Shown here piece after piece: positions 16,430 to 64,000 of a stretch of 64,000 nt of DNA (its first letter is position 1; each line of letters starts with the position of its first letter). Under the pieces are notes generated by a model that was given only the letters and a program-made list of their open reading frames with translations, did not search any database and was not told the DNA's origin. The position numbers and the translations under genes were made by a program. The stretch is taken from NCBI GenBank assembly GCA_031281585.1, contig JAITFE010000158.1:3477-67476 (forward strand), in the 5' to 3' direction. The stretch is from Bifidobacteriaceae bacterium (GTDB taxonomy: Bacteria > Actinomycetota > Actinomycetes > Actinomycetales > WQXJ01).

Positions 16430-16433
16430 CGAT

Positions 16434-21432: not shown

Positions 21433-21434
21433 GG

Positions 21435-40100: not shown

Positions 40101-43100
40101 CAATGGTTCCAGCCGACCGATGTGGACGGGGACGGCGGCGTGGAGTGGCCGTTCCTGAATCCTCCCGGCGACCCCTACCCGTACGCAGAGGCCGACTTCG
40201 ACGTGTTGAAGAACCTGGGCGTGGATCATGTGCGCCTGCCGGTGAGCTTTGACCAGCTGGCCCCGGCGGGGGACGACTACCAGATCGATTCGCGCTTGTG
40301 GGGTCCGTTGGACGGGGCTATCAAGTGGGCGAATGACCGCGGTATCAAAGTGGTGATCGACTACCACCCCGTGAACGCGCCGCCGTTCACCGAATTGGCG
40401 GAGGGCCTGCCTGCCATCTGGCGCCAAGTCGCCGAACACTACAAGGGTTACCCGGCCCATTCGGTCTACTACGAGATCCTGAACGAGCCTGACCGGGGCA
40501 TCGCGGCGACGGCGGCCGATTGGGGCGCCCTGCAGGAGGCCGCGGTCGCGGAGATCCGCCAGGTGGACCAGACCCACACTGTGGTGGTGACCCATGTTCT
40601 GAGCGAAAGCGGGAACCTGGTCAACCTGGCGGACGCGCTGCCCCGCTATGAGGACAAGTACCCGGGCCCGTTCGTTTACACTTTCCATTTCTACACGCCC
40701 GCTTTGTTCACCCACCAAGGGCTGCGGGGATGGACGCAACAGATCGAAATGCCGTTCCCGCTGGACCCGGAGGCCGAATGGCCGGCCACTGCGCCGGCCG
40801 GCGTCACCGAGGCGGACAAAGCACTGTGGGCGACCTACCCGGAGAACGCCAGCGTGGAGTACCTGACGGCCATGATGGACGCGGTGGTCCAATTTGCGCG
40901 GGACCGGAACGTGCCGGTGTGGTGCGGGGAGTACGGCCTTTACTGGGCGGCGCCCGAGGATGACGCCCTGACCTGGTTGAGGACCGTGACCGAGTTGTTG
41001 GAAGAGCGGAACATAGGCCGCGCGGTCTGGGACTACACGTACGGGTTCGGCATCTTCGATTGGAAGACACGCACCCATGACCCGGACAAACTCAACCTCA
41101 AGGCACTCGACGCGATCGGCTTCAACCCGCCGTCAACCTGGCCAAAGTCAGAGCCGCCGGTTTCAGGTCCGGGACTGACGCGCCTTGAGGTGTCCAATTC
41201 GACGGTCACGGCGTACGTGACAGACGGGGACGGCGCCGTCTTGCCGGGCCGCGAAGTCGCGTTCTCAATCCCCCATGGCGTCACGGCTGGCTTGACTTCA
41301 GGTCCGGCCTTCGTGTCCGTGACCACGGACGCGCAGGGTGCGGCGGTGCTGGCCCTGTCCGGGGCGCCTGGGTGGTACTCGGTCAGCGCGGTGGTGGACG
41401 GCGTCACGATCACCGAGGGTTCGCCCGCGCGGGTTGTGTTCGGGCCGGTAGAGGCGGTGTGGCCGGAACCGGGCGGAGACCCCGCGCCGTTGGATTCCGG
41501 CTTGCACAAGGGCGTCAGCCTGCATCACTGGTTCCAAGGCGTCGATCTGACGGGCGACGGCGTGCCGGACTGGCCGTTCTTGGATGAGCAGTCCCACCTG
41601 AACCGGTACACGGAGGCCGACTTCGACACGATGCGGAAACTAGGCATTGACCATGTGCGCATCGCGGTGGACTTCAACGGAATGTCTTCCGCCGAGAACG
41701 GCTACGAGTTGGATTCCCGGCTGTTGCCGGCCCTTGACCGGGCCATCGGCTGGGCGTTCGCGCGCGGAATCAAGGTGGTGATCGACTACCACCCCAAGAC
41801 GACCATTGAGTTCACGGACTTGACGGACGGTTTGGCGCCCATCTGGGAGCAGGTCGCCGAGCATTACGGGGACTACACGGCCTATCCAACCGACATGCTG
41901 TACTTCGAGGTCCTGAACGAACCGGTCCCCCCGCAGGGCAGCGCGTCGCGCGCGTCGACCAAACTGTGGGGCGAGGCGCAGGAAGACGCGGTCCGGGCCA
42001 TTCGCGGCAAGGACAAGCTTCATCCGATCATCGTGGGCCATGTCGCGGGCAACTCCACATTCTTGTTCGACGTGCAGCAGTGGACCCAGGACGTGGAGGT
42101 CCTGCCGCGCTACGAGGACCTGTACACGGATGACGGGCCGATCATTTACACATTCCACTTCTATGAGCCGGGCATTTTCACCATGCAGGGCACCCCCGCC
42201 ACCTCTGCGGGCGTGCTGGCCGGCATGGGCATTCCGTTCCCATGGGATCCGGCCCGCTGGCCGGAGGAGGAGCCCCAGGGGTTGAGCGTCTACGGCCACG
42301 ACGACTGGACGCGTTACGCGGAGAAGGGCACCGTCGCCTATCTGGCCAAACGGCTCGACACCGTGGCGTTGTTCGCGAACATGCGCGGTGTGCCCGTCTA
42401 CGCGGGCGAGTACGGCGTGTACGGGGGGGAGGCGCCCCGCGCCGACCGTCTGACCTGGCTCAGCTCCATGACCAAGCTCCTGGAGGAACGCAACTTGGGT
42501 CGCGCCGTGTGGAGCTACAACGGCGCGTTCGGCCTGTTCGCGGACTTCAAGGGCGGTGTTCACGACCCGGCGCTGCTTGATTCGGAGGTCGTGGCGGCGG
42601 TTGGCCTGAACCCGCCGGAAAGCTGGCCGGCGGCTCTGGACTTGGAGGCGATCCGGTTGTCGTTCCAGGGTTCGTCGGGTGTGGTCGATCCGGCGTCCGG
42701 GGTCCACGCCGCGTCGGTGGCGGTGACGGACGTGGCGGGTTTGCCGCGGGGCGACGTGGAGGTTTCGTTTGAGTTGTCCCCGGCTGCTTCGGCGTTCTTT
42801 GTCGACCCGGCCACGGGCGGGCGTCTGGACGCGAATCCTTTGGCGATGGCGTCCTCGGCGTTGGGCGTGGCGGCGGTGGCGGTGTCCGCTGACGCGTCCG
42901 CGACGGTTCATCTGATTGTGCGGATCGGCTCGGATGTGGTCGGCGAGGCGGATTTCTCGTTCGAGGCCGCGCCCGGCCCTTCCCCGAGCGCCTCGGCCAG
43001 CCCGGAGCCAAGTCCGGAGCCCAGCCCGGATCCGTCCCCAAGCCCGTCGGCGAGCCCTTCTCCTAGCCCGTCCCAAAGCCCGGAACCGCTGGTCTGCGCC

Positions 43101-46100
43101 GGACCCGTCGGCGAGTTGACGGCATCGGCCTCGGAGCCGTCCCAGGCTGTCACCTCGGCGGCCGTGGTCTGCCCCGTGGACGGGTTGGCGGCCGTCCGGC
43201 TGAACGCCCGGTTGGGCGGCGACTTGTCACGCTTGCGCGGCGAGGTCGTGGTGACCTTCAAGAACGCGCAGGGCGCCACGGTGGGATCGAAGGTGTTCGG
43301 GCCTTGGATTCACTCTTTCGCCGGGCTGGACTGGTCTGACACGTTGCCGGTTCCGGCCGGGGCGGCGTCCGTCTCGGTGGCCGCGCGGGCCACAGCCGCC
43401 TCCAGCGGCGCGATCTCCGGCACGTGGCGGGTGGCGGCGGTGGAGGCGCTGCCCAGCACCCACGTGGCGCCCGCCGGCGACCAGCCCGTCGCGATCACCG
43501 CAGGCGAATCCGCGACTTGGGCCTTCAACGTGACCCCCGCGTCCGCCCGCGGCCCGCTCGAGGTCGTTTTGACGGACGTGGACGGCGTGGAGGCGTACCG
43601 CGCGTCGGCGGTCCGCGCCGCCGACGGGTCCACCGCGGTGACCGTGCCCGCGGTGGCGCAGGGCTACTACGACGTGACGGCGACGTTCACGGCATCGGAC
43701 GATGCCGTCGCCCGGGGTTCCTGGACCAGCTCCCTGACCGCCGTGCCCGCCGGGGAGGTCCCGCAAGAGGCGCGGTTCGGGTTGGACGCGGGTCTGTCGT
43801 GGCCAAACGCCGCCGCGTACCGGGACGGGCGCTCCGCGTCAATGATCGCGAAAGCCGGGGTCGGCAGCGTCCGCGACCGGCTGAGGTGGGCCGACGTCTA
43901 CGACTGCCAAACGTGGAACACGCAGGGGCGGTATCTGGGCAACAGCGCGGTGCGGACCTACGGCGCGGTCGCGGAAGACTTCGTGGACAACGGGTTGGCC
44001 GTGGTGCACGTGTTCCAGGACGCGCCGGCGTGCGCCCGCCCCGGCGGCGCCGCCGAGCCCAACATCCCCTTGGACTACGCCCAGGTGTACAAGTTCGGGC
44101 AGGAATACGCCCGCAATTTGGGGCCGCTGGTGGAAGCGGTCGAATACTGGAACGAGCAGGCCGGCTCATTCTTCAACGGGCGGCCGTTCGAATACGCCTC
44201 CGGCCTGAAGGCGTTCACGGCCGGGGTCAAGTCGGTCCGCCCGGAAATCCGCGTCCTGATCGGCTCATCCGGCCCGGTGGGCCGGTATGAGACTGAAACC
44301 TACGCCAACGCCGTGACCAACGACTTCGACACGCGCAACCACCATTTCTACGGCTACGCCTCCGGCGGGAACACCGGCCTGACTGAGTTCGCCGCGCAAA
44401 ACAAGACGCAAGAGGCGACAACCGCGGCCGGCCTGGGTGCCCCGGCCGCCGGGCTGACCGACAAGTCCTTGTGGCTGACGGAGACCGGGGTCGACATCCA
44501 CGCCGACGCGGCCGGATCCGAACGCCCATCGGAAAAGCTCCAGGCCGAACGCTTGGCGCAGACCTACGCGGAAGGCTTCGCGGCCGGTTACGAGAGGGTC
44601 TTCGTCTTCTACTGGCAGGAACTGCTGGAGGGGAACTCGTACCTGTGGGGAATCACGCGGGACGATTTGTCGCCGCGCCCCGCCTACTACTCGCTGTCCC
44701 TGGTGACGCGTCATCTGGCGGGGATGTCGGCGGCGAAGATCGAAACCCACGGCTCCGGCAAGACGGTGTATTTCACGTGCGACAACCCGGAGGCGAAGGG
44801 CGCCACCTGCTCGCAGGGCGAAGTGCGGGCCGTGACCTGGGGCGGGGGTGTGACGCTGCCCGCCTCCGCGCAGGTGATGGACGTGTTTGGGCGTGTGGTT
44901 CCGGCCGCTCAGGCTTCCGCCGAGGGCGCGGGCACCTATCTGGTGGGGGGCTTGACCGCCGTCCCGGCGGGGGCCGCGCCTGTGACGGTCCCGCAGTCGC
45001 CCGTCGCGACCGGACCGGCGCCCTTGCGGCTCCAGGTGCAGCGGATAGTCGGCGACGGGAGGATCACCACGCTGACCGGCGCGACTGCGCATTACGACTT
45101 CCTGGTCTCCACCGGTTCCGTCATCGACATGGTCCTGGCCGCGCGCGACGCGGCCGATTCGGACGTTTCCGCGTCCACCACGGTGACGTGCGGCTATCAC
45201 ACCGGCTTCACCATCCTGTCAGACGTGAATCCCCAGCCCGTGGACGGCGAGTTCGTCTGCCGCTACCGGGTCGACCTGCCATGGGCCACCGGCGGCTGGT
45301 CCAGGATCTGGGCCCAGGCGGCACGCGGGGAAGGGGCCGCCCAAACAACCGACCAGGCGGCGGCCTGGATTGTGGCCGGACCGCCGGAGGGCGCCTTCTG
45401 GGCGCCTGGTCGAACGTTGGCCCCGGGCGACGCCATCACCTCGCCGAACGGCCGAGTCAAGGTGGTTTGGGAGGCGGACGGCCGCCTGGTGGAGTACTAC
45501 GACGGCGCCGAGGTCCGGGCCACGCCCACCGCCGGCGCCGCCAAGGCGGTCTTCCAAGCCGACAACGACTTCGTGATCACGGACCAAGCCGGCGCCGTGT
45601 TGTGGCGCACCGGCAGCGTTGGCGACTGGACGGGTGTCTTCACCGTCAACGACCAGGGCCAGGTGGCGGTCGAGCGGTTCAACCGCACCCTGGAATGGGA
45701 GTGGCTGCCCGCGCTCGAGCCACCGGGCGAGTTGCCCGTCTCGGGCCCCGGCCTGTCGCGCCTGGAGGCGGCCGCCGGGTCCGCCACCCCCGCCGATGGC
45801 GTCACCACCCGGTCGGTCACGGCCCACGTGACAAACGGTTCCGGCGCCCCGCTGGCGGGCCGCGACGTGTCGTTCTCAATCCCCTTCGGGGTCCGCGCCG
45901 GATCCTCACCGGGACCGGCCGTCATCCTGGTGGCGACGGACGCGACAGGCGCGGCGGTGTTGGCCCTGACGTCCGATGCCGCCGGGTCCTATCCGGTCAC
46001 CGCCCGCGTCAACGGGGTGGCGATCACGGAGGGCTCCCCGGCCGTGGTCGCGTTCGCCCAGCCCCTGGACCCGTCCCCAAGCCCGACGGCGAGCCCGACG

Positions 46101-52744: not shown

Positions 52745-53025
52745 AGGCTTGCGGCAGCGGCGCGAAGGCGTTCCGCCATGCGCGCGGTGCCGGCGGCGGG
52801 TAGGCCGTAATCGGCGAATTCTGCCGCATCAACCGTAGAGGCCTGCATCAGCACATGGGCAAATGCAGCGGCCGTGGCCTCGGGTCTGATCTTGGCCAGC
52901 ATGGCGGAGAGGCCTTGCACGGTCCAACGACCCAAGTCCACTACCACCGCGCCGTCACCTGGAGCCGCGACCACGAACGACCGAAACCAAGAGTCGGCCT
53001 GACCGGCAAGGGCGGGCGCTGGCAC
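52741..53025 (-). CDS. Hypothetical small protein (94 aa)
   Basis: ORF translationally coupled to 52478..52744. No recognisable motif. Confidence 0.4.
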   Translation of the reverse strand: MPAPALAGQADSWFRSFVVAAPGDGAVVVDLGRWTVQGLSAMLAKIRPEATAAAFAHVLMQASTVDAAEFADYGLPAAGTARMAERLRAAAASL

Positions 53026-53128
53026 GTACCGCGCGACGGTTCCCTGCGCGCGATTGACTGTTCAGGCAGCCCATTCCCCCTGATCAGACCGCAAAACCGC
53101 GCGCACAAGCCGCGAAGTCAGGATCCGG

Positions 53129-53150
53129 CTTGACCTTGACGTTACGTCAC
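53129..53150 (+). promoter_or_regulatory. MerR-type operator/promoter motif, copy 1 (CTTGACCTTGACGTTACGTCAC)
   Basis: TTGACC (-35-like, 53130-53135), a 19-bp spacer containing the palindrome TGACG-TTA-CGTCA, then TGTAAT (53155-53160). It lies 78 nt upstream of the small ORF at 53228. Confidence 0.6.
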
Positions 53151-53227
53151 AGCCTGTAATGAATGATGCAAGAGCGAAGGGCCCCGAGGTTCTTCGCGCA
53201 GACATCGCCCGAAAGGAAATATAAGGC

Positions 53228-53314
53228 ATGAACACCGCCGACTCTGATATCCAGCTTGACCTGACCGTGACTGAATTTGACGCCACCGAAGCCCCTTCAT
53301 TCGTCTGGTGGTGA
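53228..53314 (+). CDS. Candidate RiPP precursor peptide (28 aa): MNTADSDIQLDLTVTEFDATEAPSFVWW
   Basis: Not in the ORF track (<60 aa). AAAGGA lies 10 nt upstream of ATG 53228. Sits downstream of MerR-type promoter copy 1 and 48 nt upstream of the RRE-M50 gene. Acidic leader-like N-terminus (6 D/E, no K/R) and hydrophobic C-terminus. Confidence 0.5.
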   Translation: MNTADSDIQLDLTVTEFDATEAPSFVWW

Positions 53315-53362
53315 TCACCGCCAACCGATTCGGCGCTTCGATCCGAGGAGACGAGTGAGACG

Positions 53363-54685
53363 GTGAGTGCCTTGCTAACACGCTTCCGGCCCGCGCCGGG
53401 AACAACGTCGCGGCTCCAGGCCGATAGCGGTCTTCTCCTCGTCTCCCGTTCGGATTGTCGAGTATTCCAACTCGGCCGCGACGCGGGTCGCCTCTTCGAC
53501 GCTCTAGCCGCCGAAGGCGACCCGCGCGACGCCGATGACCTTTGCGACATGTTGGGCTGTGGTCGCAATGCCGAATCCGTGGAGCGGGCGCTCGCGTCAA
53601 TGGAGGCATTGGGACTGGTGTCCCGCGTGGGACGGGCGGGTCCGGTCTCGGGTCCGCCACGCCGCTCCCGGATCGCGTTTCGTCCGCCGCTCGCGGTTGC
53701 CGTCAGACTGATCGACCCCTCGCGGCTACTGGCGTTTCTCGCCCCGCTGGCGGTGCTGCTGCGCGGTCGCCTTGGCCTGTGCCTTGGACTGGCAGGACTC
53801 ATGGCGCAAGTCGCGTTCCTATGCTGGGCCCCGCCCGCTTGTGTCAAGGATCCGTTTCACGCTGTGCTCGCAGCTTCCCTGGTACTTGGCGTGGCGGGAT
53901 TGCACGAGCTCGCTCACGGGTTAGTCATGACCCGCGCAGGCGTGAGTTCCCGAGGGATCGGATTCATGTTCATGGGTCCGGTGCCTCTTCTGTACTGCGA
54001 CGTTTCCGGCAGCGTTGCGTTGTGCCGTCGGGCCCAAGTCGATGTCGCCCTTGCCGGGGTGGTAATGCAGGCCCAGGTGGGCGCGCTCCTTCTGCCGATG
54101 GCGGCCGGCGCCAACTCACTTGGCGTGATTAGGGCGTTCATCGCGGTCAACCTGATGATGATGGCTGGAAACGCGGTTCCATTTCTTCCCTTGGACGGAT
54201 ACATCGCGCTTAGGGCAGGGCTCGGCAGACCCAACTTGCGGACGGCTGCCATCGCGGAGTTTGGTCGGTGGGTGGTTCGCCTCGTGGGACGGCAAGGCCC
54301 GGGCGGGGAACGCGGAAGCGAACCAAGATGGCTTGCCGCGTTCGGCGGAGCGGCGGCGCTTGCGCCGGTTTGCCTGGTGGGCGTCGCGGTTTGGCGATCA
54401 AGCGAACTTGCCGGATGCGCCGGCGGGATCGGGGCGCTGGCGGTGGCCGTGGTGGTGTGGCTGGTAAGTCGAATCGCGCCGAATGTGGCTCGCTCGGCGC
54501 GATCACAGGGTTCCTGTACCCTGTTGCCAGGCAATCGATGCGTTCCGCGCCAGGGACGCACGTCCTACGGGGAAGGACTGGAGAGACCGGGTGGACCTGA
54601 CGATTGGCGAACTCGCGCGGATGGTGGGCCTGACGCCCAGGACGGTCCGTTACTACGAGAGCATTGGGCTGCTTCCAGAGCCTGA
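53363..54685 (+). CDS. PqqD/RRE-like domain fused to an M50-family (site-2 protease-like) membrane zinc metallopeptidase
   Basis: GTG 53363 with GAGGAG upstream. The N-terminal about 90 aa has a PqqD-like pattern (LLLVSRSDCRVFQLGRDAGRLFDALAAEG...AESVERALASMEALGLVS). Multi-TM core with HELAH (53903-53917) and NAVPFLPLDGY. The last 95 nt overlap the MerR gene, so the C-terminal end is uncertain. Confidence 0.7.
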   Translation: MSALLTRFRPAPGTTSRLQADSGLLLVSRSDCRVFQLGRDAGRLFDALAAEGDPRDADDLCDMLGCGRNAESVERALASMEALGLVSRVGRAGPVSGPPRRSRIAFRPPLAVAVRLIDPSRLLAFLAPLAVLLRGRLGLCLGLAGLMAQVAFLCWAPPACVKDPFHAVLAASLVLGVAGLHELAHGLVMTRAGVSSRGIGFMFMGPVPLLYCDVSGSVALCRRAQVDVALAGVVMQAQVGALLLPMAAGANSLGVIRAFIAVNLMMMAGNAVPFLPLDGYIALRAGLGRPNLRTAAIAEFGRWVVRLVGRQGPGGERGSEPRWLAAFGGAAALAPVCLVGVAVWRSSELAGCAGGIGALAVAVVVWLVSRIAPNVARSARSQGSCTLLPGNRCVPRQGRTSYGEGLERPGGPDDWRTRADGGPDAQDGPLLREHWAASRA

Positions 54686-55370
54686 TCGCACTTGGGGAAA
54701 CTATCGCCTGTACTGCGAAGAAGACGTCATCCGTCTTACTCGCGTTAAACGGCTCACCGCAATGGGGCTGAGCCTAGAACAGGTCGCCGACGTTATCGGC
54801 AGACCGGTTGACGAATCCTCAGAAGAGGTTCTGACGGAGCTGAATAGGCGGCTCCAATCTGAGATTCGAGTCGCGCGCGAGCGGCAGAAAGCCATTGACC
54901 GCATAAGGGGAACCGGTGCCACAATCGACGCGGAGCCGGAATTCGCCGCCAGGCTAGTAAAGCAAGAACAGGCGGAGTTGACTGAATTTGAGCGCGACTA
55001 CAGCCGGGTCCTGGTTGACGCCGTCACCGCGCTCGGCTCGGACTCTGACCGCGCCCGCCTCGAATGGCTCTTTGCCCACGGTGACGCGTTATCGACGCTG
55101 CCGGAGTTCCAGGCCCTCAATTCGCTCGACAAGGATCTGGCCGCTCTGCCGGATGATGCGACCGAGGAGGAGATCGAAAAGCTGGCCGATGCCTACATCA
55201 CGGCGCATGAGGCGGCTGATCAAGCGTTCCCGCCCGGTATCGCCCGAACCTGGTCGCCCCGCTTGGCTGATGTGTTAGACGCCCTTTTGGACAACCGGCT
55301 CAGCGATGCCCAGGTCGAGGTCCAACGCCGCGTCCGAACCGCTCGCCGCGACGGCGGCGCGAGACACTGA
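54591..55370 (+). CDS. MerR-family transcriptional regulator (long C-terminal effector domain)
   Basis: GTG 54591 gives VDLTIGELARMVGLTPRTVRYYESIGLLPEP...YRLYCEEDVIRLTRVKRLTAMGLSLEQV (MerR HTH + coiled coil). About 150 aa of additional C-terminal sequence. Confidence 0.85.
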   Translation: MDLTIGELARMVGLTPRTVRYYESIGLLPEPDRTWGNYRLYCEEDVIRLTRVKRLTAMGLSLEQVADVIGRPVDESSEEVLTELNRRLQSEIRVARERQKAIDRIRGTGATIDAEPEFAARLVKQEQAELTEFERDYSRVLVDAVTALGSDSDRARLEWLFAHGDALSTLPEFQALNSLDKDLAALPDDATEEEIEKLADAYITAHEAADQAFPPGIARTWSPRLADVLDALLDNRLSDAQVEVQRRVRTARRDGGARH

Positions 55371-55401
55371 CCCCTAGTGATGTTTGGCTCGCGGACGGCC
55401 G

Positions 55402-55423
55402 CTTGACGTTGACGCGGGGTCAG
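55402..55423 (+). promoter_or_regulatory. MerR-type operator/promoter motif, copy 2 (CTTGACGTTGACGCGGGGTCAG)
   Basis: TTGACG (55403-55408), a 19-bp spacer with TGACG-CGG-GGTCA, then TTGGGT (55428-55433). GTG 55441 follows about 8 nt later, consistent with a leaderless mRNA. Confidence 0.55.
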
Positions 55424-55440
55424 AGTGTTGGGTCGGGTAT

Positions 55441-55857
55441 GTGACAAGCATCCAGAATCCGCCAGTGCCCGGCCATGCCGGCTCCCAGACCCCGATCCAG
55501 TTGGAATACACCACGCGAGAGGCGGCGCAATTGGTTGGGTTGACCGCCCGCGCGCTGCGCTACTACCACCAGGTGGGGCTCCTGCCCGAGGGCCGGCGCG
55601 GACCCGGTGGCCAGCGCATCTACACCCGCGAGCAGATCCTGATGTTGCTCCGGATAGTGCGTCTGAGCGAAATGGGCCTCTCCCTAGAGGAGGTGGCGGA
55701 TGTCTTGGGTGGCCCGCCGGGGACTCACCGCGCAGAGGTCATTCTTGTGAGCTTGGACCGCGCGCTGGCTGACCGGGTCGGCGTGATCCAGGCCCAGCGC
55801 CGTGTCATCCGTGAGCTGCTCACGACGGGATCGCCCGTGATCAAACGCGGTGGGTGA
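55441..55857 (+). CDS. MerR-family transcriptional regulator (short)
   Basis: YTTREAAQLVGLTARALRYYHQVGLLPEGRR...RIYTREQILMLLRIVRLSEMGLSLEEV. GTG 55441 is preferred over the track start 55384, which lies upstream of and across the promoter motif. Confidence 0.8.
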   Translation: MTSIQNPPVPGHAGSQTPIQLEYTTREAAQLVGLTARALRYYHQVGLLPEGRRGPGGQRIYTREQILMLLRIVRLSEMGLSLEEVADVLGGPPGTHRAEVILVSLDRALADRVGVIQAQRRVIRELLTTGSPVIKRGG

Positions 55858-55907
55858 CGCCGCAGGGCACCGACCAGCTCCACGTGTCCGTTTCGTGGCG
55901 TCCCCGG

Positions 55908-57797
55908 CTAGGGAAACGGGTGCGGCACCAAGTTGGGTACGAACGCCGATGCCGGGCGGCCGGTGTGCGCCGCCCACGCGTCCCGCAGTCGGGGCATCCG
56001 TAGGGCGCGCTGAACCGACCAGCCGAAGTCGATCGGGATTAGCCCAGGGACGATCGCCTTGGCCGCGTGGGCCCCGAGCCTTGTCAGTAGTGGAATCGTC
56101 TGGTCTACCACGATCGGCTCGAAGCCCGCCTGGCTGGTGATCTCGATGAGCCAGCCAAGACCCAGGCCGGGCTCGTCGGCTTCGGCCGCGCTTCGGCATG
56201 GTCCAACCTTGTCCACCGGAACCAACGGCTCCGCTGGCCCATCCAGCAAGAATGCGGCCAAGTGGCGGGCCGCGGGATTCTTGAACATGTCAGCGTGATC
56301 CTCCAACCGCCTGACCGCCTGGAAATCGCGAATCATGGCGTCGGTCTGCGTCAGCCTTCCCTGCGTCATGCGATGCGTCGAGGCCGAGTCGGAGGTGAAA
56401 CCCAGTCCGAAGTCGGAGCAGATCTCCGACAAGGCGCCCAGGATGGCGTCCTGCGGATCAGGCCGACTGGCGGCGCCGAAACAAAGGGCGCCGCTCTTTT
56501 CATTCTCGGCGACAGCCATCACAGTTGGAACCGGCAAACCAACCGTGCAATCGAAGAGGCGGACCTGCTGCCCATATAGCCGCATGCGTGCCAGCATCAT
56601 CTGCGCCAAATTGGATTCGACCCCGTTGGGGTCGATCTCGCGGAGGGGAATCCCGCCATACCAAGCGATAAGGAACGAGTCTCGTTCAATCACTTCGAGG
56701 AGGCCATAGAACGCGGCCTCTGCCAGAGTTGAACCAACGGCACAGCCACTCGAAGTTTCGAAGGCGAATAGCTCTGCGGCCGGCTCGGCCCCGTAATACA
56801 CCAGCGACTCTGGAACTGCGACAACCTCTCTCGCGCGCAGCGAATAGCCGGGCACCCAATTCATCTCCGCCGGAACCGGGAACGGCCAGTCCTCGGGCGC
56901 CAAGCCGAATTCGCTCGGGCCTACGGCGCGCACCGGTAGATCGGCAGCGGATCCCCGCCAACGCAGCGCACGCTGGGCCGGCCTGTACCCGGCGATCCGC
57001 TCCAGTCCTTCCAGCACGCCAATGGCCTCGGAATCGGCGAATGTGCCGGCGTGGCCGCCCCAATGCAGCGACCAATTCTCCCTGTGGGCGCCCAACCGCT
57101 TCTCTCCAGCGACCTTGGCGGGAATCTCTGACTCAAGGTCCCAAAACGATCGGGATCCAGCCAAAGCCGTTGCTGGATGAAGGAAATCGCTTGGTTGCAG
57201 CGCGTCGAAATGGGAGCGGGCCGGGGCGCGGGGCACAAGCAGCGCGTCGCCCGGCCGGAGTTGTCCCTCATAATCTGCGGGCGGAGCCTCAGGTGCGAAC
57301 TCATGGTGCCGGGACGGGTGACACGGCTCACAGGCCAATAGGCGTACACCCGTGATGCCCAACCGCAACCGGTCAATTCCAACCACCGCTGGGGCCGCCG
57401 CGGGATCGGAAGTGGCAAGGGTTTCGAGTAGGCGGGCCATCAACTCGGCCTCGAACGGGTTGCTCCCCGGCAGATCCACGCCGACCTCCGCAGTGCTCAC
57501 TGCGTGGCGGAGCGACGGATCGTAGCCCACGGCCTCCATCACACAGGGAACGCAGCTGGTTGCCCTGGGATCCGAGACAAAGACGTGGGTCGGCGTGCGG
57601 TAGATGACCGGACCATCCCACTGGATCGCCAGATCGGGGTCCGAGTGCCCCGAGGGGGCCGGACCCAAAGCGTCCACCACCAGGCATGGGCACGGGTCTG
57701 GGGGGAGCTTCGCATCGGGCACTAACGGGTCCTGTCGCTGGTCGGGGTGGGTCATGAGGGAACTGGCGCGGGCGTTTGGGACCTTATCACACACCAT
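55908..57797 (-). CDS. YcaO-domain cyclodehydratase (SagD family) with Cys-rich N-terminal extension
   Basis: FETSSGCAVGSTLAEAAFYGLLEVIERDSFLIAWY (YcaO ATP/Mg core-like). Pro-rich C-terminus ...VPNLVPHPFP, typical of azoline-forming YcaOs. The N-terminal about 230 aa has CPC, CVPC and CEPC. The alternative start ATG 57755 (MTHPDQ) is equally possible. Confidence 0.88.
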   Translation of the reverse strand: MVCDKVPNARASSLMTHPDQRQDPLVPDAKLPPDPCPCLVVDALGPAPSGHSDPDLAIQWDGPVIYRTPTHVFVSDPRATSCVPCVMEAVGYDPSLRHAVSTAEVGVDLPGSNPFEAELMARLLETLATSDPAAAPAVVGIDRLRLGITGVRLLACEPCHPSRHHEFAPEAPPADYEGQLRPGDALLVPRAPARSHFDALQPSDFLHPATALAGSRSFWDLESEIPAKVAGEKRLGAHRENWSLHWGGHAGTFADSEAIGVLEGLERIAGYRPAQRALRWRGSAADLPVRAVGPSEFGLAPEDWPFPVPAEMNWVPGYSLRAREVVAVPESLVYYGAEPAAELFAFETSSGCAVGSTLAEAAFYGLLEVIERDSFLIAWYGGIPLREIDPNGVESNLAQMMLARMRLYGQQVRLFDCTVGLPVPTVMAVAENEKSGALCFGAASRPDPQDAILGALSEICSDFGLGFTSDSASTHRMTQGRLTQTDAMIRDFQAVRRLEDHADMFKNPAARHLAAFLLDGPAEPLVPVDKVGPCRSAAEADEPGLGLGWLIEITSQAGFEPIVVDQTIPLLTRLGAHAAKAIVPGLIPIDFGWSVQRALRMPRLRDAWAAHTGRPASAFVPNLVPHPFP

Positions 57798-57821
57798 CTG
57801 GAAACTGGTGGGCGCGAGCCG

Positions 57822-57843
57822 CTTGACCTTGACGCGACGTCAC
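57822..57843 (+). promoter_or_regulatory. MerR-type operator/promoter motif, copy 3 (CTTGACCTTGACGCGACGTCAC)
   Basis: TTGACC (57823-57828), a 19-bp spacer with TGACG-CGA-CGTCA, then TTGACT (57848-57853). ATG 57861 lies 8 nt downstream (leaderless-type). The motif sits in the divergent YcaO / E1-like intergenic region. Confidence 0.6.
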
Positions 57844-57860
57844 GGTTTTGACTTCAAGCC

Positions 57861-59954
57861 ATGACCCGCTCACAGCAAGGAATCGGCCCATCGACAGCCC
57901 TTTCGCTTGAAGCGCCGCAGCCCTCCGGAGCCGCCCCAGGCGCGAAGCTAAGGCTCCGAGCCAACACCATGTTCAGCTCGTCCGCTGCCGGTATCCGCTT
58001 CTCCAACACCGAGACGGTCCTTGAGATCGCCGGTGCGTCCGCCTACCGTGCCTTCAAGGCCATCGCGCCGATACTGGACGGCTCGTATTCGCGGCGCGAA
58101 CTCGCCCAGACGCTGGATCAGCGGACTTGGCAGAAGGTGGAGGCGTTTGTCGAGCCGTTGCTGGCACGGGGCTTCCTTCGCGAAATCGACCCGTGTCCGG
58201 ACGTCAGCCTCTCGCCCGATGACGAGGTGAGGTTTGCCGAGCAGCTCGCCTTCATCGCCCACTTCAAAGATGATCCGAAGCGTCGCTTTGTTCGCTTCCG
58301 CGACGCATCCATCGCCGTGGTCGGCGGCTGCCCGCTTGCTGCCTGGCTTGCCCGCGTGCTTGTCCAAAACGGCGCCCGGCGCCTGACCTATTACAGCCCC
58401 GGCGCCGCGCGCCCGGACGATCTGCCGGACTCAGTTCAGGTCCGATCGCTGGATCGCCTGGACCATGACGCGCCGGAGTGCCAGGTCCTGGTGCTGCCGC
58501 CCACACCTTGGGCGGCGCGGCGGCTGGCGCAGGCCGGAGACGGTTTTGGCGCGCCGGTGACTTTGCCGATCACAGCCTTGGGCGACAACCTCGTGATCGG
58601 CCCGATGTGGACCGCCGGTGACGATTCGGCCGCCACCTGGGCAGACATGATGGCGGCGCTGAGCGAGCACGATTCGGATGGGAGTGTCGCCCACTTCTGG
58701 GTCACCGCACTTGCGGGGGTAGAGACCGGCGCGACCGCGACAGGGCTACCTGCGGTCCAGCGGCTTGGAGCCTCCCTTGCCGCCATCGAGGTGTACCGGA
58801 ACCTGACCGAGATTTCTGAGCCTGAGACGGCCGCTTCGATCCTGGTCCTCGATTGCCTTCACGGTGAGGCCAAGCGTCACCGCGTGATCCCGCACCGGTA
58901 CATCCACCCGGCCGCCACCGGATCTATGAACAGGTGCCCGGCGTCGAGCCTGCCCGCACCTTCCGACGAAGTCTCCGGCAGGGTCGGACCAAGCTGGTCC
59001 AAGGCCTGCGCACAAGCGGTCGATCCTCTGACTCTTCCAATCATGCGATTCGACGATGGCGAGATCGAGCAATTGCCGCTCAAGGTGTCCGTGGCGGAGG
59101 TGGTGATGGGTGGCGGGAGACCACCGGTCACCATCGGCTCGGCCGATCTCTGGGATGTGGCCGGCGCTCGTGCCCGGGCTACCCGCCAGGCGCTGGCGCT
59201 GCGGCTCGAAACGTGGGCGCCCCCCGCCGCCTCGTGGGCCGAGGCGCGGACGGTCGATGGTCTCCTTCACGGTCGCACAACGCGCGACCAGGCCCACACA
59301 TCCAATCCCGTCCTGGCACGGGACCTCCTCACGGGCGAGAAAATCGCCGTGCCTTCCGGCGCCGTCGCCACCATGTCGAGCGCTAACACGCTGGGCGTCT
59401 TCGGCCGCTCAGCGCTCGGCTGCGGCATCGGACTCGACTACGACGAGGCGTTGGAGGGCGCCGTTTCCTCGGCCGCCGCGCGTCTAGGACTGATCGCGGC
59501 GGCCCGCGCGGGAGCGGCACCCCGCGCGACGGCATCGGACACCTCGCCTAAGAGCGTCTTCTTGCGCGACGCGGCCCAAAGGCTCGGCGTGGTTGTCGAA
59601 TCATTCGATGCCGGGTGCCACCTCGGCCGCCACGTCGTCATCTCGCGGTGCCGGCGCTCCGGGGTGACCGCCTGGGAGGCAGCCGCAGGCAGCGACTTGG
59701 CCGAAGCCTTGTGCGCCTCGCTCGTTGGGCTGATCGGCGCTGTGCAACGGGCCGCCAACGGAAAGGCCCCCGAGACCTGGTCGATGACGGCCGAGCCAGA
59801 GTTCGACCCGAACGGTTTGGCGACCGGAACGGCCCCTCTGGAAAAGGCCAATAGCCCCCGCGTGATTGTCTGCGACGTCACCAACCCGGAACTCGCTGCC
59901 CTCGGATTCGTGGCCGTCAAGGCCCTGACGGCGGACGGGGGCGAACCGCGATGA
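57861..59954 (+). CDS. E1/ThiF-like cyclodehydratase partner (ocin-ThiF-like) with N-terminal RRE-like wHTH and YcaO-like degenerate C-terminal half
   Basis: N-terminus IRFSNTETVLEIAGASAYRAFKAIAPILDGSYSRRELAQTL...VEPLLARGFLREI (RRE pattern). Rossmann-like IAVVGGCPLAAWLARVLVQNGARRLTYY. The C-terminal half has GCGIGLDYDEALEGAVSSAAARL but no E-x-x-ER motif. Assignment is by resemblance only. Confidence 0.65.
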   Translation: MTRSQQGIGPSTALSLEAPQPSGAAPGAKLRLRANTMFSSSAAGIRFSNTETVLEIAGASAYRAFKAIAPILDGSYSRRELAQTLDQRTWQKVEAFVEPLLARGFLREIDPCPDVSLSPDDEVRFAEQLAFIAHFKDDPKRRFVRFRDASIAVVGGCPLAAWLARVLVQNGARRLTYYSPGAARPDDLPDSVQVRSLDRLDHDAPECQVLVLPPTPWAARRLAQAGDGFGAPVTLPITALGDNLVIGPMWTAGDDSAATWADMMAALSEHDSDGSVAHFWVTALAGVETGATATGLPAVQRLGASLAAIEVYRNLTEISEPETAASILVLDCLHGEAKRHRVIPHRYIHPAATGSMNRCPASSLPAPSDEVSGRVGPSWSKACAQAVDPLTLPIMRFDDGEIEQLPLKVSVAEVVMGGGRPPVTIGSADLWDVAGARARATRQALALRLETWAPPAASWAEARTVDGLLHGRTTRDQAHTSNPVLARDLLTGEKIAVPSGAVATMSSANTLGVFGRSALGCGIGLDYDEALEGAVSSAAARLGLIAAARAGAAPRATASDTSPKSVFLRDAAQRLGVVVESFDAGCHLGRHVVISRCRRSGVTAWEAAAGSDLAEALCASLVGLIGAVQRAANGKAPETWSMTAEPEFDPNGLATGTAPLEKANSPRVIVCDVTNPELAALGFVAVKALTADGGEPR

Positions 59955-61585
59955 CCGCCACAACAATCCAAGTGGACAGGCCGACACCTGCCCCGGAGTC
60001 GTCTTGTGCCACGCTCACGCCGCTGGGCGAGGAATGGGCGGAACTGGCCCCAGGCCAGGCGGCGCGGCGGTACGCCGAGATGATCTTTCGCCGGGCCGAA
60101 CAGGGAATGCCCCTCCGCAAGTGGCAGATCGACTGGGCGGACGCCCCCTGGCCGCAGAAGTTCTACCCCGGAACCCAGCTTGTCGCCTTGCCTCGGGCCA
60201 CGGCACCAGGTGGCCTGGCCTCGGGTGGACCGGTCGCCATGGACCGCGCGCTTGGAGACCTCCTCTTCTACTCCTACGGAGTGATGGGGAGGCGCAGCCG
60301 AGTCAATTGCAACGAGTCCACATCGATGCTGGTGAACGCCGAGGAGGCCAGGTGGGCGCGAGGTGCGTCATCGGGTGGGGGCAGATACTGCGCGGGCGTG
60401 TACCTCGTGGTGGGACGCGACTTCGGTCTGGAGAGCGGGATCTACCACTATTCACCGATCCACCACGCTCTCGAGCGCCTCTCGTCGGGGGACTGGACAG
60501 GTCCCGTGGCGCATGCTCAGCGGTATCCCGCCGCGCAACAGTGCTACGTCATCCTCACCGTCAAGTACTGGCAGTCCGCCTTCAAGTACAACGACTTCGC
60601 CTGTCAGGCGACCAGCATGGACCTGGGAACTCTCACGGGGACATGGCGCTACGTGCTCGGGGAGGCCGCAGATCTCGTCCAGCCCGATCTGTGGGTGGAT
60701 GAGGCGTCGCTGGCGGGGATCCTCGACCTTGACTCCGGCGCGGAGGCCGTTTGTGCGGTCATGGGGATCGGGCCGGCCACCACCGCTGCGGTCAGTCCCC
60801 GACCGGGCGGGCGCCTGCCCCACGCCGACGAGCGTTCCCAGACGGTCCACTCGTTTGTCACCCAGCGGGCGCTCCAACGTGACGCGCTGGCAGAACGAGG
60901 AGTGCCGTCCGGCCTCGACCCGGTGTGGCCTGTACCCGAGTCTTTGACCGCCTCGCTGACGCCCGACCCAGCAGTCAAGGGGCGAATCAGCGACGTGTGG
61001 CGCCGCGAGACGTCTTTTGGGCGCTTTGACGGCGCTCCGGTCCGCGTCGAAGTGCTAATCGAATGCCTGGCTGAGGCAGACGCCGCCCAATCGGTGGTGG
61101 ACCGAACCTTCTCCGGCGCCACGGGGAGGGAAGTGGGTCTATATGTCATAGCCGAGGCCGTGGATGGCCTACCGAGAGGCTGCTACCGCTTCGATGCCGG
61201 CACGCGGGCGTTGCGCCGGGCGCACACCCGTGACGCCATGGCGATCTTGCTCCGGCGCTACTTCCTCAACAACTACGACCTCGAGCGAGCGGCGGCCCTC
61301 GTGGTCATGACTGCCAATCCGATCGGCCTTGGAGAGGCTTACGGCGTTCGCGGCTACCGCGCCATCAACACGGCCGCAGGCGCGGTTTGTCAGCATCTGC
61401 ACCTCGCATGTGCGCGGCGAGGAGTGGGCGCCGGAACGGCCCTCGGCTTCGACGCGGCCAGCGAGTTCGACGCGCTGGGGCTGTCAGGCCGGGACGCCAT
61501 TCCGGTGTTGACCATGTTCATTGGGCATGACCGGCTGGCCTCCGGGGCGCTTGACCTGTCCCTCGAATGCGGCGGGGAACGGTGA
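59951..61585 (+). CDS. SagB-type (nitroreductase-fold, FMN) azoline dehydrogenase
   Basis: ASSGGGRYCAGVYLVVG...GIYHYSPIHHALERL and a second lobe LYVIAEAVDGLPRGCYRFD...NTAAGAVCQHLHLACARRGVG. ATGA overlap with the preceding gene. Confidence 0.85.
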   Translation: MTATTIQVDRPTPAPESSCATLTPLGEEWAELAPGQAARRYAEMIFRRAEQGMPLRKWQIDWADAPWPQKFYPGTQLVALPRATAPGGLASGGPVAMDRALGDLLFYSYGVMGRRSRVNCNESTSMLVNAEEARWARGASSGGGRYCAGVYLVVGRDFGLESGIYHYSPIHHALERLSSGDWTGPVAHAQRYPAAQQCYVILTVKYWQSAFKYNDFACQATSMDLGTLTGTWRYVLGEAADLVQPDLWVDEASLAGILDLDSGAEAVCAVMGIGPATTAAVSPRPGGRLPHADERSQTVHSFVTQRALQRDALAERGVPSGLDPVWPVPESLTASLTPDPAVKGRISDVWRRETSFGRFDGAPVRVEVLIECLAEADAAQSVVDRTFSGATGREVGLYVIAEAVDGLPRGCYRFDAGTRALRRAHTRDAMAILLRRYFLNNYDLERAAALVVMTANPIGLGEAYGVRGYRAINTAAGAVCQHLHLACARRGVGAGTALGFDAASEFDALGLSGRDAIPVLTMFIGHDRLASGALDLSLECGGER

Positions 61586-61589
61586 CACC

Positions 61590-64000
61590 ATGCGCGTCAT
61601 AGCCGACGAGAGGGTTCAGTCCCGGACAGCGGGTTTGCCGGCGAGTGTGCTGCGCGGTCTGCGTTCAGCGGATTTCGAGGCGTGGGTAGCGGACGTTGAC
61701 GCGGCGGAGGAAGCTCTCAGCTCAGCTCTTGAGCGCGCCACGGACCAGCTCTTCGGGATCATCGGCAGACTCGAGGCCGGTTCCGACCGCAAGGCGTTGG
61801 TGGAAGCGCGCCGGCACTTGCACAACCGGCGCTTCGCCCAGGCCAAGGTCCGCGTCGATGCCGTGTCACCTGGGATTGCCGAAGAGGTTGCCGCCTTGTC
61901 CGCACCGGTCTTCGCGGCGGCCGACGAATTTGAGGCCGTGCGGGCGCGCGGCGAGCTGGTGGTGGGGGAATGGCTGCGCCGGGAGCGCTTGAACCTTGGC
62001 GAACTGCTGGACGAGGAAGACTTCGCGCGAGGACTGGGCGTGGCGGCACCGAGCGCCACCACCGGCCTCCTCTCATACCGGGCCGCTGCACGCCGCGGGG
62101 GAACGCTGTCAAAGAATCAGCGCAAGGCTGAGCGGACGCTTCTTCAATACGCGTGGCGGGCGGCCGCCAAGACCTCACCGTTCTCAAGCCTCACGCGCGT
62201 TGGCATAGCGCGGTGCTCCGGCGCTGCAAACGTGCCCGCATCTGGCGGGAGAGACTTTCCAGACCGGATTGATGTGTCTCGCGCCTCGGTTTACCCGATA
62301 GCGCTGGCCTTGGACTCGCTTTGGCACAACGAGAAAGCCGTCCTGGGAATGCGGGTGATGCCGGGCCAGGTGATAGGGGAGGAACCGGACGGCGCCGTGA
62401 TTGTCCACCGCTCGGAGTACGACTTCTCCGACGCCACCGGAGAATCCGACCAGGCGGCCGTTCTGGAGTCTCTGGTCCGCATAGTTCCCGGAGATCTTTG
62501 CGACACGGTAGCGGCGGCCCTGGAGCAGGGCGCCGCCACCGTGGGCGCAGTCGTGGATCGCATGCATGGCCAGGGTGTGCCTCAGGCGACAGCGTTGCGT
62601 GCGGTTCAAGAGCTGATCCGGCTCGGCTTCTTGGTTCTGCCGGACCTCCGCTTCCATCCGCACATTGGCGCCGAGGCGGTCCTCGAGAGCCTGCCCAGGG
62701 AGATTGAGAAGCTCGGGGACCAAGGCTTCCGCGACGCGGTCACTGGGTATGTGGAGGCCGCCGAGTCTTTGTCGAAGATCAGCGGACTCGCCGAGCGATC
62801 CCATGCCGTGGATGCGATCCGCGGCGCGGTCAAGCGGGTTTACGAGGTCTCCGGCTGCTCAGACGCGCCGGTTCCGCAGTCGGTTGTTTACGAGGACTCG
62901 GGCCTGGGTCAGGCGCCCGAACTGCCAAGCCCGCCTCTGGAGAATCCGGACTTGGGGAAGCTGTTCGCGTTGTCGGAGGTGCTGGACGAGAGTCAAGTGC
63001 CGAGGGCCATGCTGAGGGGATTCTTCTTAGGGATGTTTGGGGCGGACGGTCGATGCGAGAACGTTCCCGCGTTCCTCGACGCATTCAAGACGCAGTTGTA
63101 CAGCTCGCACATGGCTCGTGACGCCGCCAACTTGGACCGGGACCGCATTGAAGCCGATCCGTGGCTGAGATGGGGTGAGGCTTGGCGCTGGGAGAAGGCC
63201 CAGGGCGTACTTAGGGAGTTGGTTGCGGACGCCGTTCCCGTGGGCGGCGTCATCGACATTCGCGACGCTTTGGCCACGAGTGGCCCGGCTCTGCGGCTGT
63301 TGCCAGATGTTGTCTTCCCCTTCCGGCACCTCAACATATTCGCTCAGGTCCTTGGTCGGAACGGACTGGTGGTCAACAACGTGTTCGGCGGTCCTGGGTT
63401 TGGGCTCTCCCGCTTCGCCCATCTATTTGGGGACGATGCCGTCAGTTGCGTTCGGTCGGTAGAGGACATGGCGCTCGCGGCCGGAGTGACGTTGCACGAG
63501 TTGCTGGGTGGAGCCGCCGTAACGAATCTCAACCTCCATGGTCCGCTTCTCAGGTCGGAACTGCGCATGCCCGGAGATCCGTCAGGCTCGCGGGCCGAGC
63601 GTCAGACCAGCGTCTTCGATCTAGATCTCATCTACATCTCGGATCAGGGCCGGCTGGCCTTGGTGCACCGGCGCACCGGCGAAGAGGTCCTGCCCACTTA
63701 CATCGGTTACCTGGTGCCGTTCGCGACTCCGACATCTCATCAGCTGATGGGGCTCCTGGCGCCCCCGGTGATGTTCGGCTCCGGCGTCTGGGGTGGACCG
63801 GAAGGAAGCGACGAGGCCGGAGCCGTTGAGGTGAAAAGGCGCCCGCGGGTCGCGATAGGCGATCACCTCGTCCTCGAGCGTGCCACTTGGGAGGTTCCAG
63901 CCGAGCTAATGCCGTCGGCCGATCCGACGTCCCCAAACGGCCTGGTCGAGTGGTGCCGATGGTGGCGTGCGCTGGGCCTGCCAGAGACGTCCTTCATCAG
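61590..64000 (+). CDS. Lanthipeptide/thiopeptide-type dehydratase, LanB N-terminal (glutamylation) domain; 3' end outside window
   Basis: Not in the ORF track (no stop in window). Hand translation from ATG 61590 (4 nt after the SagB stop) stays open for 803 codons. Hallmarks are RKAERTLLQYAWRAAAKTSPFSSLTRVG and a C-proximal RRPRVAIGDHLVLERATWEV. Confidence 0.85.
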   Translation, partial: MRVIADERVQSRTAGLPASVLRGLRSADFEAWVADVDAAEEALSSALERATDQLFGIIGRLEAGSDRKALVEARRHLHNRRFAQAKVRVDAVSPGIAEEVAALSAPVFAAADEFEAVRARGELVVGEWLRRERLNLGELLDEEDFARGLGVAAPSATTGLLSYRAAARRGGTLSKNQRKAERTLLQYAWRAAAKTSPFSSLTRVGIARCSGAANVPASGGRDFPDRIDVSRASVYPIALALDSLWHNEKAVLGMRVMPGQVIGEEPDGAVIVHRSEYDFSDATGESDQAAVLESLVRIVPGDLCDTVAAALEQGAATVGAVVDRMHGQGVPQATALRAVQELIRLGFLVLPDLRFHPHIGAEAVLESLPREIEKLGDQGFRDAVTGYVEAAESLSKISGLAERSHAVDAIRGAVKRVYEVSGCSDAPVPQSVVYEDSGLGQAPELPSPPLENPDLGKLFALSEVLDESQVPRAMLRGFFLGMFGADGRCENVPAFLDAFKTQLYSSHMARDAANLDRDRIEADPWLRWGEAWRWEKAQGVLRELVADAVPVGGVIDIRDALATSGPALRLLPDVVFPFRHLNIFAQVLGRNGLVVNNVFGGPGFGLSRFAHLFGDDAVSCVRSVEDMALAAGVTLHELLGGAAVTNLNLHGPLLRSELRMPGDPSGSRAERQTSVFDLDLIYISDQGRLALVHRRTGEEVLPTYIGYLVPFATPTSHQLMGLLAPPVMFGSGVWGGPEGSDEAGAVEVKRRPRVAIGDHLVLERATWEVPAELMPSADPTSPNGLVEWCRWWRALGLPETSFI

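Follow-up and report, generated by a model that had tools for sequence, protein, structure and literature searches.

Daptides are produced from MpaA precursors whose leader carries the motif ELExMEAP, with Pro at position -1, and is removed by MpaP, an intramembrane M50 protease fused at its N-terminus to a RiPP recognition element (RRE) (Ren et al. 2023, PMC10036551). Their cores span 20-31 residues and end in an invariant Thr that is converted to the amine terminus, and their loci encode MpaB (RRE protein), MpaC (dehydrogenase), MpaD (aminotransferase) and MpaM. Short peptides also serve as signals: the induction peptides of class II bacteriocin loci, such as plantaricin A, are short bacteriocin-like peptides with the same leader type as the bacteriocins, and SHP/XIP pheromones are matured by the M50 protease Eep (PMC7564271, PMC2850506). 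The latter are imported by Opp/Ami and often control radical-SAM RiPP clusters. Other membrane M50 enzymes, including EpeP/YydH of epipeptides and TglG/TmoG of pearlins, release a small peptide or residue from a ribosomal scaffold, and EpeP is thought to both cleave and export its peptide (PMC10885120). In Streptomyces, the MerR-family activator TipAL responds to thiopeptides through a C-terminal TipAS antibiotic-recognition domain and acts at ptipA.

Here, we examined a 28-codon gene at positions 53228-53314 of a 64,000-nucleotide stretch of actinobacterial DNA (hereafter the window). The gene is conserved, and its product is probably cut by the neighbouring membrane protease to release the five-residue peptide SFVWW. 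Together with one or two MerR-family regulators, the two genes form a small, portable cassette that sits beside different antibiotic gene clusters in uncultured actinobacteria and may act as their on-switch, rather than supplying raw material for the thiopeptide-type antibiotic encoded next door. The relevant features of the window are as follows.

53130..53160 (+), MerR-type promoter/operator copy 1: -35 TTGACC (53130-53135), a 19-bp spacer holding the palindrome TGACGTtACGTCA, and a -10-like TGTAAT (53155-53160); expected transcript start about 53167
53212..53217 (+), Shine-Dalgarno sequence AAAGGA, 10 nt before the ATG
53228..53314 (+), 28-aa pre-peptide MNTADSDIQLDLTVTEFDATEAPSFVWW: leader of residues 1-23 (..LDLTVTEFDATEAP) and predicted released peptide SFVWW (residues 24-28)
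53363..54685 (+), dedicated RRE-fused M50 intramembrane metalloprotease, 440 aa: RRE at residues 1 to about 90 (predicted), catalytic motifs HELAH at 181-185 and N270..P273..LDG277-279
54591..55370 (+), MerR regulator 1 (type A, 248-259 aa): HTH, coiled coil and an all-helical C-terminal domain of about 150 aa with unknown ligand; its start overlaps the 3' end of the M50 ORF
55403..55433 (+), MerR-type promoter copy 2, with a -10-like TTGGGT
55441..55857 (+), MerR regulator 2 (type B, 138 aa), which lacks the C-terminal domain and appears leaderless
55908..57797 (-), YcaO cyclodehydratase (SagD family), part of the neighbouring azole/dehydroalanine RiPP cluster and not of the cassette
57823..57853 (+), MerR-type promoter copy 3, directly before the ocin-ThiF-like/SagB/LanB operon; ATG 57861 lies 8 nt after the -10-like TTGACT, and this transcript also appears leaderless
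57861..64000 (+), cluster operon placed under promoter copy 3: ocin-ThiF-like partner (57861-59954), SagB dehydrogenase (59951-61585) and LanB N-terminal-type dehydratase (from about 61590, cut by the window end)

The small ORF had been proposed from sequence alone, and every local feature described for it was confirmed. The frame runs from ATG 53228, the only in-frame start, to TGA 53312-53314. The G+C fraction is 0.54 for the ORF and 0.57 for 53100-53362, against 0.68 for the window. The stop lies 48 nt before GTG 53363 of the protease gene, with no terminator-like site between them, and residues 1-23 hold six D/E and no K/R. A GAAAGG sequence occupies the Shine-Dalgarno position in L002, L003 and L038 (L numbers denote the related loci, all of them on metagenomic contigs and several of these short). 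The promoter, 79 nt upstream of the ATG, belongs to a pattern with three matches in the window (53130, 55403 and 57823) against 0.01 expected, and a transcript start near 53165, as had been suggested, fits the sequence. A standard sigma-70 scan found no promoter in 52800-58000, as expected for 19-bp spacers. Two other tiny ORFs, starting at 53159 and 53163, begin before the expected transcript start and lack a Shine-Dalgarno sequence.

To identify what the neighbouring enzymes act on, we followed the cluster beyond the window on L001, a metagenomic contig identical to this region. In order, L001 holds the rest of LanB, a Lant_dehydr_C/thiopeptide-type protein, a second and very divergent HExxH membrane protein, a 59-aa gene (MSTADIAGLAAELDALNAETLEVKDYVDYSDAAFASSSSCSSTTSTCSSCSSTSSCAAL), ABC transporter genes and a further YcaO. 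The 59-aa product, rich in Ser/Cys/Thr, passes both NCBIfam thiazolylpeptide-precursor cut-offs (40.3 against 30 and 36.8 against 25), whereas the 28-aa peptide gives no NCBIfam hit even at E = 10. The cluster therefore has a conventional substrate just outside the window, and the 28-aa gene should not be annotated as the thiopeptide precursor. The two HExxH proteases of the cluster share only the HELAH region (18-22% identity), and paralogy between them was rejected.

To investigate the prevalence of the small gene, we searched with the protease, with the MerR C-terminal domain, and with a profile against 1.84 billion representative proteins. These searches yielded 12 lineages carrying a 24-39-aa ORF with the leader ..[ST][IV]TE[FY]D..[DE]AP followed by only 4-8 residues of aromatic character, given below as locus, leader and core.

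Window: ..LDLTVTEFDATEAP, SFVWW
L127: ..DLTIDEYDAVDAP, SFWNW
L041: ..DFSITEYDTVDAP, SFWMGL
L036: ..DFSITEYDAVDAP, DWWMG
L121: ..DFEITEYDAVDTP, ALWMGC
L037: ..DFVITEYDAVDAP, GFYLGL
L003: ..DLTITEYDAVDIP, IWWL
L122: ..MSILIFDATDAP, TWWVQ
L002: ..LDLSITEYDVTEAP, NIWIWLL
L124: ..DLTITDYDAVDAP, CWWWVCCR
L038: ..LDLTVTETDATKAP, CWLLLFLL
L119: ..FDFSVTETDTTQAP, CWLLLFLL

The motif occurs nowhere else in about 1 Mb of related loci. In the conserved leader block, 46% of codon differences are synonymous, against 25% expected from mutational opportunity. Between L038 and L119, the core has 0 nonsynonymous and 2 synonymous changes, while the leader has 12 nonsynonymous changes (Fisher p = 0.015), indicating selection on the core. 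In L116/L117, the peptide gene is missing and the M50 has lost its NxxPxxxLDG region, while MerR and the promoters remain. A partial scan of genome contigs returned only distant or daptide-type relatives, and tblastn against plasmids found only mpaP-type genes; no cultured carrier was identified in them, and no description of this module was found in the literature searched.

Each short peptide lies beside an RRE-fused M50 protease of a distinct clade related to MpaP. The partner proteases are 32-48% identical to one another and 24-34% identical to daptide proteases, are about 400 aa long against about 545 aa for MpaP, and were separated in the exhaustive profile search by a score gap (232-620 bits against 214 bits or less). 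Their HExxH and NxxPxxxLDG motifs are invariant. The only family match of the window protein is NCBIfam daptide_HExxH (E = 7e-53), with 180 bits against a curated cut-off of 300 (180-243 bits for the clade), whereas a true daptide protease (L045) scores 488; shared architecture combined with a sub-threshold score places it neither inside nor outside the MpaP equivalog. A weak hit to RiPP_HExxH_LiaK (about 40 bits) was also recorded, although substrates, modifying enzymes and cut sites differ from those of the epipeptide and pearlin proteases, and no radical-SAM epimerase or PEARL logic is conserved with the cassette. An AlphaFold model (AF2; pLDDT 64 overall, 74-89 in the first 90 residues) shows an N-terminal sheet-plus-three-helix domain, which Foldseek matched to the RREs of TbiB1 with its leader (probability 0.99), PbtF, TruD and ThcOx.

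The more distant protease relatives sit in true daptide loci, where the precursors read ..ELExMEAP|GFW... and all 30 or more retrieved end in Thr. The window peptide fits the daptide leader motif position by position, as E16-F-D-A-T-E-A-P23 with Pro at -1, and aligns with daptide precursors across the cut site (z = 3.7-8.3 against shuffles). In relatives this segment is conserved as TE[FYT]D..[DEKQ][AIT]P, with [DEKQ][AIT]P before the cut in all of them, and the short cores resemble the first residues of daptide cores (x-F/W-W). Cleavage after Pro23, as proposed in the sequence-only reading, is therefore well supported by homology. However, the window peptide ends in Trp, and its relatives in W, L, G, C, Q, R or I, rather than in Thr. 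Moreover, the core comprises 4-8 residues, and no MpaB/C/D/M genes were found near the gene in the window or L001, nor in L002, L003 or L036; they are present in L127, where separate Thr-ending precursors exist.

Comparison of gene neighbourhoods indicates that the peptide is an accessory gene with its own protease. In L121, three daptide-like precursors and a daptide-type 523-aa M50 lie in one operon, whereas the short peptide sits between a MerR gene and a second, short-clade M50. In L127, four Thr-ending precursors lie with a daptide RRE protein, an aminotransferase (465 bits, above the cut-off) and a dehydrogenase, whereas the short peptide follows a MerR gene and a second, short-clade M50 has its own promoter. 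L036 carries a radical-SAM/SPASM cluster with a 33-aa Cys-containing ORF, and L002 and L038/L118 carry no visible cluster but have Opp-type peptide importers directly beside the cassette. The window repeats this logic, with one protease for SFVWW and another next to the thiopeptide-type precursor, although no importer was identified among the window ORFs that were scanned. An upstream-ORF or attenuator role was rejected because in L003 and L036 the small gene is convergent with M50 and has its own promoter.

The adjacent MerR proteins form one family, which includes a shared all-helical C-terminal domain of about 150 aa that is rare in the databases (9 clusters) and has no recognisable ligand-binding homologue. 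The closest PDB sequence hit of the MerR profile is the N-terminal domain of TipA (2vz4, E = 6e-23), and the system resembles TipAL/ptipA in placing a MerR-family activator beside a thiopeptide-type cluster, in its 19-bp spacer holding a palindrome, and in its autoregulatory arrangement. No TipAS domain was detected, however: there was no Pfam hit (PF07739), no PDB sequence hit for the C-domain profile, and no TipAS structure or other counterpart of the domain among the Foldseek hits of an AF2 model (pLDDT 82), a comparison made with the whole chain, so that a distant fold match of the C-domain alone is not excluded. In addition, these regulators travel with the short peptide and M50 even where no thiopeptide cluster exists.

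The promoter motif TTGAC-N2-TGACG-N3-CGTCA, with a T-T-n-A-n-T hexamer after a fixed 19-bp spacer, recurs before peptide, M50, MerR and cargo genes, and the same geometry lies upstream of the small ORF in L003, L036, L037, L041, L121, L122, L124 and L127. Across 127 loci it tracks the short peptide (11 both, 108 neither, 4 and 4 discordant), and it was found in only 1 of 18 loci with daptide-like precursors, the one that also has the short peptide. The L038/L118/L119 lineage lacks the motif. Peptide gene and target operons thus share a promoter type at the sequence level, with binding and activation by the adjacent regulators left unexamined.

Taken together, these data suggest that the ORF encodes a pre-peptide descended from daptide-type precursors. 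In this view, the RRE of the adjacent M50 protease binds the acidic leader, the protease cuts after Pro23 as MpaP cuts after ..MEAP, and the unmodified hydrophobic pentapeptide SFVWW (calculated [M+H]+ 724.345) is released at or in the membrane. The peptide would then act as an induction or autoinducer signal, sensed directly or after re-import by the long MerR protein, and raise, through MerR1 and MerR2, its own expression and that of the neighbouring antibiotic operon. The analysis itself establishes the gene and its conservation, its pairing with a dedicated M50 clade, the leader motif, the shared promoter motif and the coexistence with separate bona fide precursors; translation, the cut site (by homology), the lack of modification, and the signalling role and its receptor are inferences. 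We consider it likely that the gene is real and is processed by its neighbour after Pro23, but the signalling role, and with it the model as a whole, is tentative.

The arrangement parallels induction peptides and Eep-matured pheromones in several respects: a short pre-peptide with a leader of the same type as neighbouring antimicrobial precursors, a short hydrophobic C-terminal fragment that would be released unmodified by an M50 protease, an Opp-type importer nearby in some loci, a promoter type shared with cargo operons, and cargo that is often a RiPP or bacteriocin cluster. A 4-8-residue core beside an M50 with intact catalytic motifs fits this anatomy but goes no further, as cleavage itself was not observed and no expression or signalling data exist. 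Differences are also evident, since the regulators are MerR-family proteins, which are not known peptide-pheromone receptors, instead of RRNPP/Rgg or histidine kinase/response regulator pairs, and their response to the peptide was not measured; the protease is dedicated and RRE-fused, where Eep is a housekeeping enzyme; and the hosts are high-G+C Actinomycetota.

Several alternatives must be weighed against this model. The released peptide could be an end product in its own right, such as a small membrane-active or antimicrobial peptide or a substrate for tailoring enzymes encoded elsewhere, merely co-regulated by MerR proteins that sense something else. The dedicated protease, the hydrophobic Trp-rich core, the ABC or MFS transporters near it in L003, L116, L121 and L127, the precedent of EpeP and the TipA-like N-terminal domain are compatible with this view, and TipA-like induction by the antibiotic itself would explain the shared promoters without any role for the peptide. 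Nevertheless, we regard the end-product view as unlikely, as 4-8 unmodified residues are very short for an antimicrobial, no tailoring gene co-occurs across the loci, the peptide gene carries the regulators' own promoter and no TipAS domain is detected. More doubtful still is an intracellular role in which the uncut peptide or its leader binds the MerR C-domain or the RRE as an anti-activator or decoy, with M50 cleavage relieving or creating that state as in regulated intramembrane proteolysis and the short tail serving only to make the peptide cleavable. The leader is the best-conserved part across lineages, MerR and M50 are always adjacent, the RRE and the S2P active site face the cytoplasm, as is established for site-2 proteases, and the x-[F/W/L]-[W/Y] start of the cores, which equals the first residues of daptide cores, may reflect only the protease's P' preference. 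Against this stand the stronger constraint on the core than on the leader between L038 and L119, the Opp importers adjoining the cassette in two lineages, and the wide divergence of the cores between lineages, which such a model does not need.

The sequence-only reading, which made the peptide a thiopeptide- or azole-type precursor with an oxazole or dehydroalanine at Ser24, is only partly supported: the gene is a genuine precursor-type gene paired with the RRE-M50 gene and the proposed cut site matches the daptide leader motif, but its role as a substrate of the YcaO/SagB/LanB enzymes appears very unlikely. Location in the same locus under the same promoter type, a chemically modifiable Ser24, and the similarity of the N-terminus MNTAD to MSTAD of the true precursor favour this role, yet the latter alignment is marginal (p = 0.05) and the leader resembles those of daptides instead. 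That reading had itself set out what would count against it, and the outcome is divided: the small ORF proved conserved in related loci, but a conventional precursor gene does lie downstream of the LanB genes. Furthermore, the cassette occurs without these enzymes in the 11 other lineages (homologous peptide genes in L002, L003, L036, L038, L121, L122, L124 and L127 lack them), and position 1 of the core varies (S, D, G, N, I, T, A or C), so no modifiable residue is conserved; azole or dehydroalanine chemistry on SFVWW is therefore unlikely, though not excluded. Equally improbable is a decayed, truncated daptide precursor, or a pearlin-type scaffold extended by the LanB-like enzyme. The cores do look like the first 5-8 residues of daptide cores, M50 proteases release C-terminal residues from pearlin scaffolds, and an 880-aa LanB-like protein is present; but short length, Shine-Dalgarno sequence, own promoter and dedicated protease are maintained in 12 lineages, synonymous changes are enriched, no hydrophobic remnant ending in Thr follows the stop codon, and LanB is absent from the other loci and is here paired with a Lant_dehydr_C protein as in thiopeptide clusters.

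If the signalling model holds, a daptide-type leader/protease pair has been recruited to make a tiny unmodified peptide that is wired, through MerR-type promoters, to antibiotic gene clusters of at least three different classes. This would offer a testable handle on how silent RiPP clusters in uncultured actinobacteria are switched on, by adding SFVWW-type peptides or expressing the cassette, and would provide genome miners with a compact marker for regulated clusters: TEYD..DAP followed by 4-8 residues, a roughly 400-aa RRE-M50 protein and the promoter motif. In its furthest-reaching form, which is possible but less likely than not, the cassette is a portable cell-cell or autoinduction system of Actinomycetota, in which a 4-8-residue Trp-rich pheromone is sensed by MerR-family regulators through a new helical domain and switches on whichever RiPP cluster it is attached to (thiopeptide-type, daptide or radical-SAM). 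This would be the first MerR-type peptide-pheromone receptor, adding a receptor class to peptide signalling, and a RiPP-machinery-derived quorum-sensing module in high-G+C bacteria.

Among the remaining observations, the window also carries a pknA/pknB/rodA block and an FeFe hydrogenase, which together with its 68% G+C point to an uncultured actinobacterium. In L002, the stretch after the promoter copy was considered as a riboswitch but proved to be tRNA-Gly.

Beyond the window end, the metagenomic contig L001, which is identical to this region and continues past it, carries a conventional 59-aa thiazolylpeptide-type precursor gene (positions 13610-13789, about 2.6 kb beyond the window end) with a strong AAAGGAG ribosome-binding site. 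Together with the genes around it, this makes the locus a complete azole/dehydroalanine RiPP cluster, although only one Lant_dehydr_C-type protein is present, so that a pyridine synthase is not assured. Directly before this thiopeptide-type precursor lies a second HExxH membrane protein of 373 aa (L001 12375-13496) with an RRE-like N-terminus. This protein is only 18-22% identical to all the other M50 proteins compared. It may be a leader peptidase of a further kind.

In L036 (5609-9348), a related metagenomic locus, a copy of the MerR-type promoter is followed by a 33-aa ORF (MLFELFNHNDSGCVSAGFIVCVSAGGNIGSWSI), an ABC2-like protein, a CAAX/Rce1-like protein, an unknown protein and a radical SAM/SPASM enzyme. 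This region has a lower G+C content (0.55 against about 0.68) and looks like an unclassified RiPP cluster under the same control. In L037, another locus carrying the cassette, two 71-aa ORFs with double-glycine leaders (MSDQLVELTE..L.D.DGG) lie about 4.7 kb from the cassette, at 6662-6877 and 7275-7490; no promoter motif was found in front of them, and they are bacteriocin-like. In the related locus L002 (11585-11420, minus strand), a perfect copy of the MerR-type promoter motif lies 72 nt upstream of a tRNA-Gly(CCC) gene.

L116 (3481-8594; equivalent to L117) represents a remnant of the cassette, in which the M50 has an internal deletion and the short peptide gene is absent, while a 197-aa protein consists only of the MerR linker and C-domain, without the HTH. 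Three promoter copies remain in this locus, one of them before an ABC transporter operon. In L125 (568-6831; equivalent to L126), a promoter copy and a short-clade M50 are followed by two large S8 subtilases; no short peptide gene was found in the 650 nt of upstream sequence examined.

Within the window, the 3′ end of the M50 ORF overlaps the start of MerR1 by 62-95 nt (54591-54685), and this overlapping stretch encodes a low-confidence tail that is not conserved in the relatives. At 55428-55443 and 57848-57863, the start codons of MerR2 (GTG 55441) and of the ocin-ThiF-like gene (ATG 57861) lie 7-8 nt after the -10-like hexamers, which suggests leaderless mRNAs; the public gene call for the latter starts 108 nt further downstream. 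By aligning the window MerR proteins (54624-55370 and 55441-55857) with those from L002, L003, L036 and L038, four related loci, we observed that two MerR sub-types usually occur together. Type A has YYE..GLLP.P.RT.GNYR.Y and is always long, whereas type B has YYH..GLLPE and is either long or truncated to about 140 aa. These two sub-types may form an activator/antagonist or heterodimer pair.

Elsewhere in the window, a 4535-aa ORF (34131-47738) contains Big_1, Invasin_D3 and Big_6 domains near its C-terminus, while its first 1000 residues have no Pfam match; it is probably a giant surface protein. In addition, at 172-2010 and 14390-21894, an FeFe hydrogenase large subunit with ferredoxin-like domains lies in the same window as an actinobacterial PknB(PASTA)/PknA/RodA block, which hints at an anaerobic actinobacterium.
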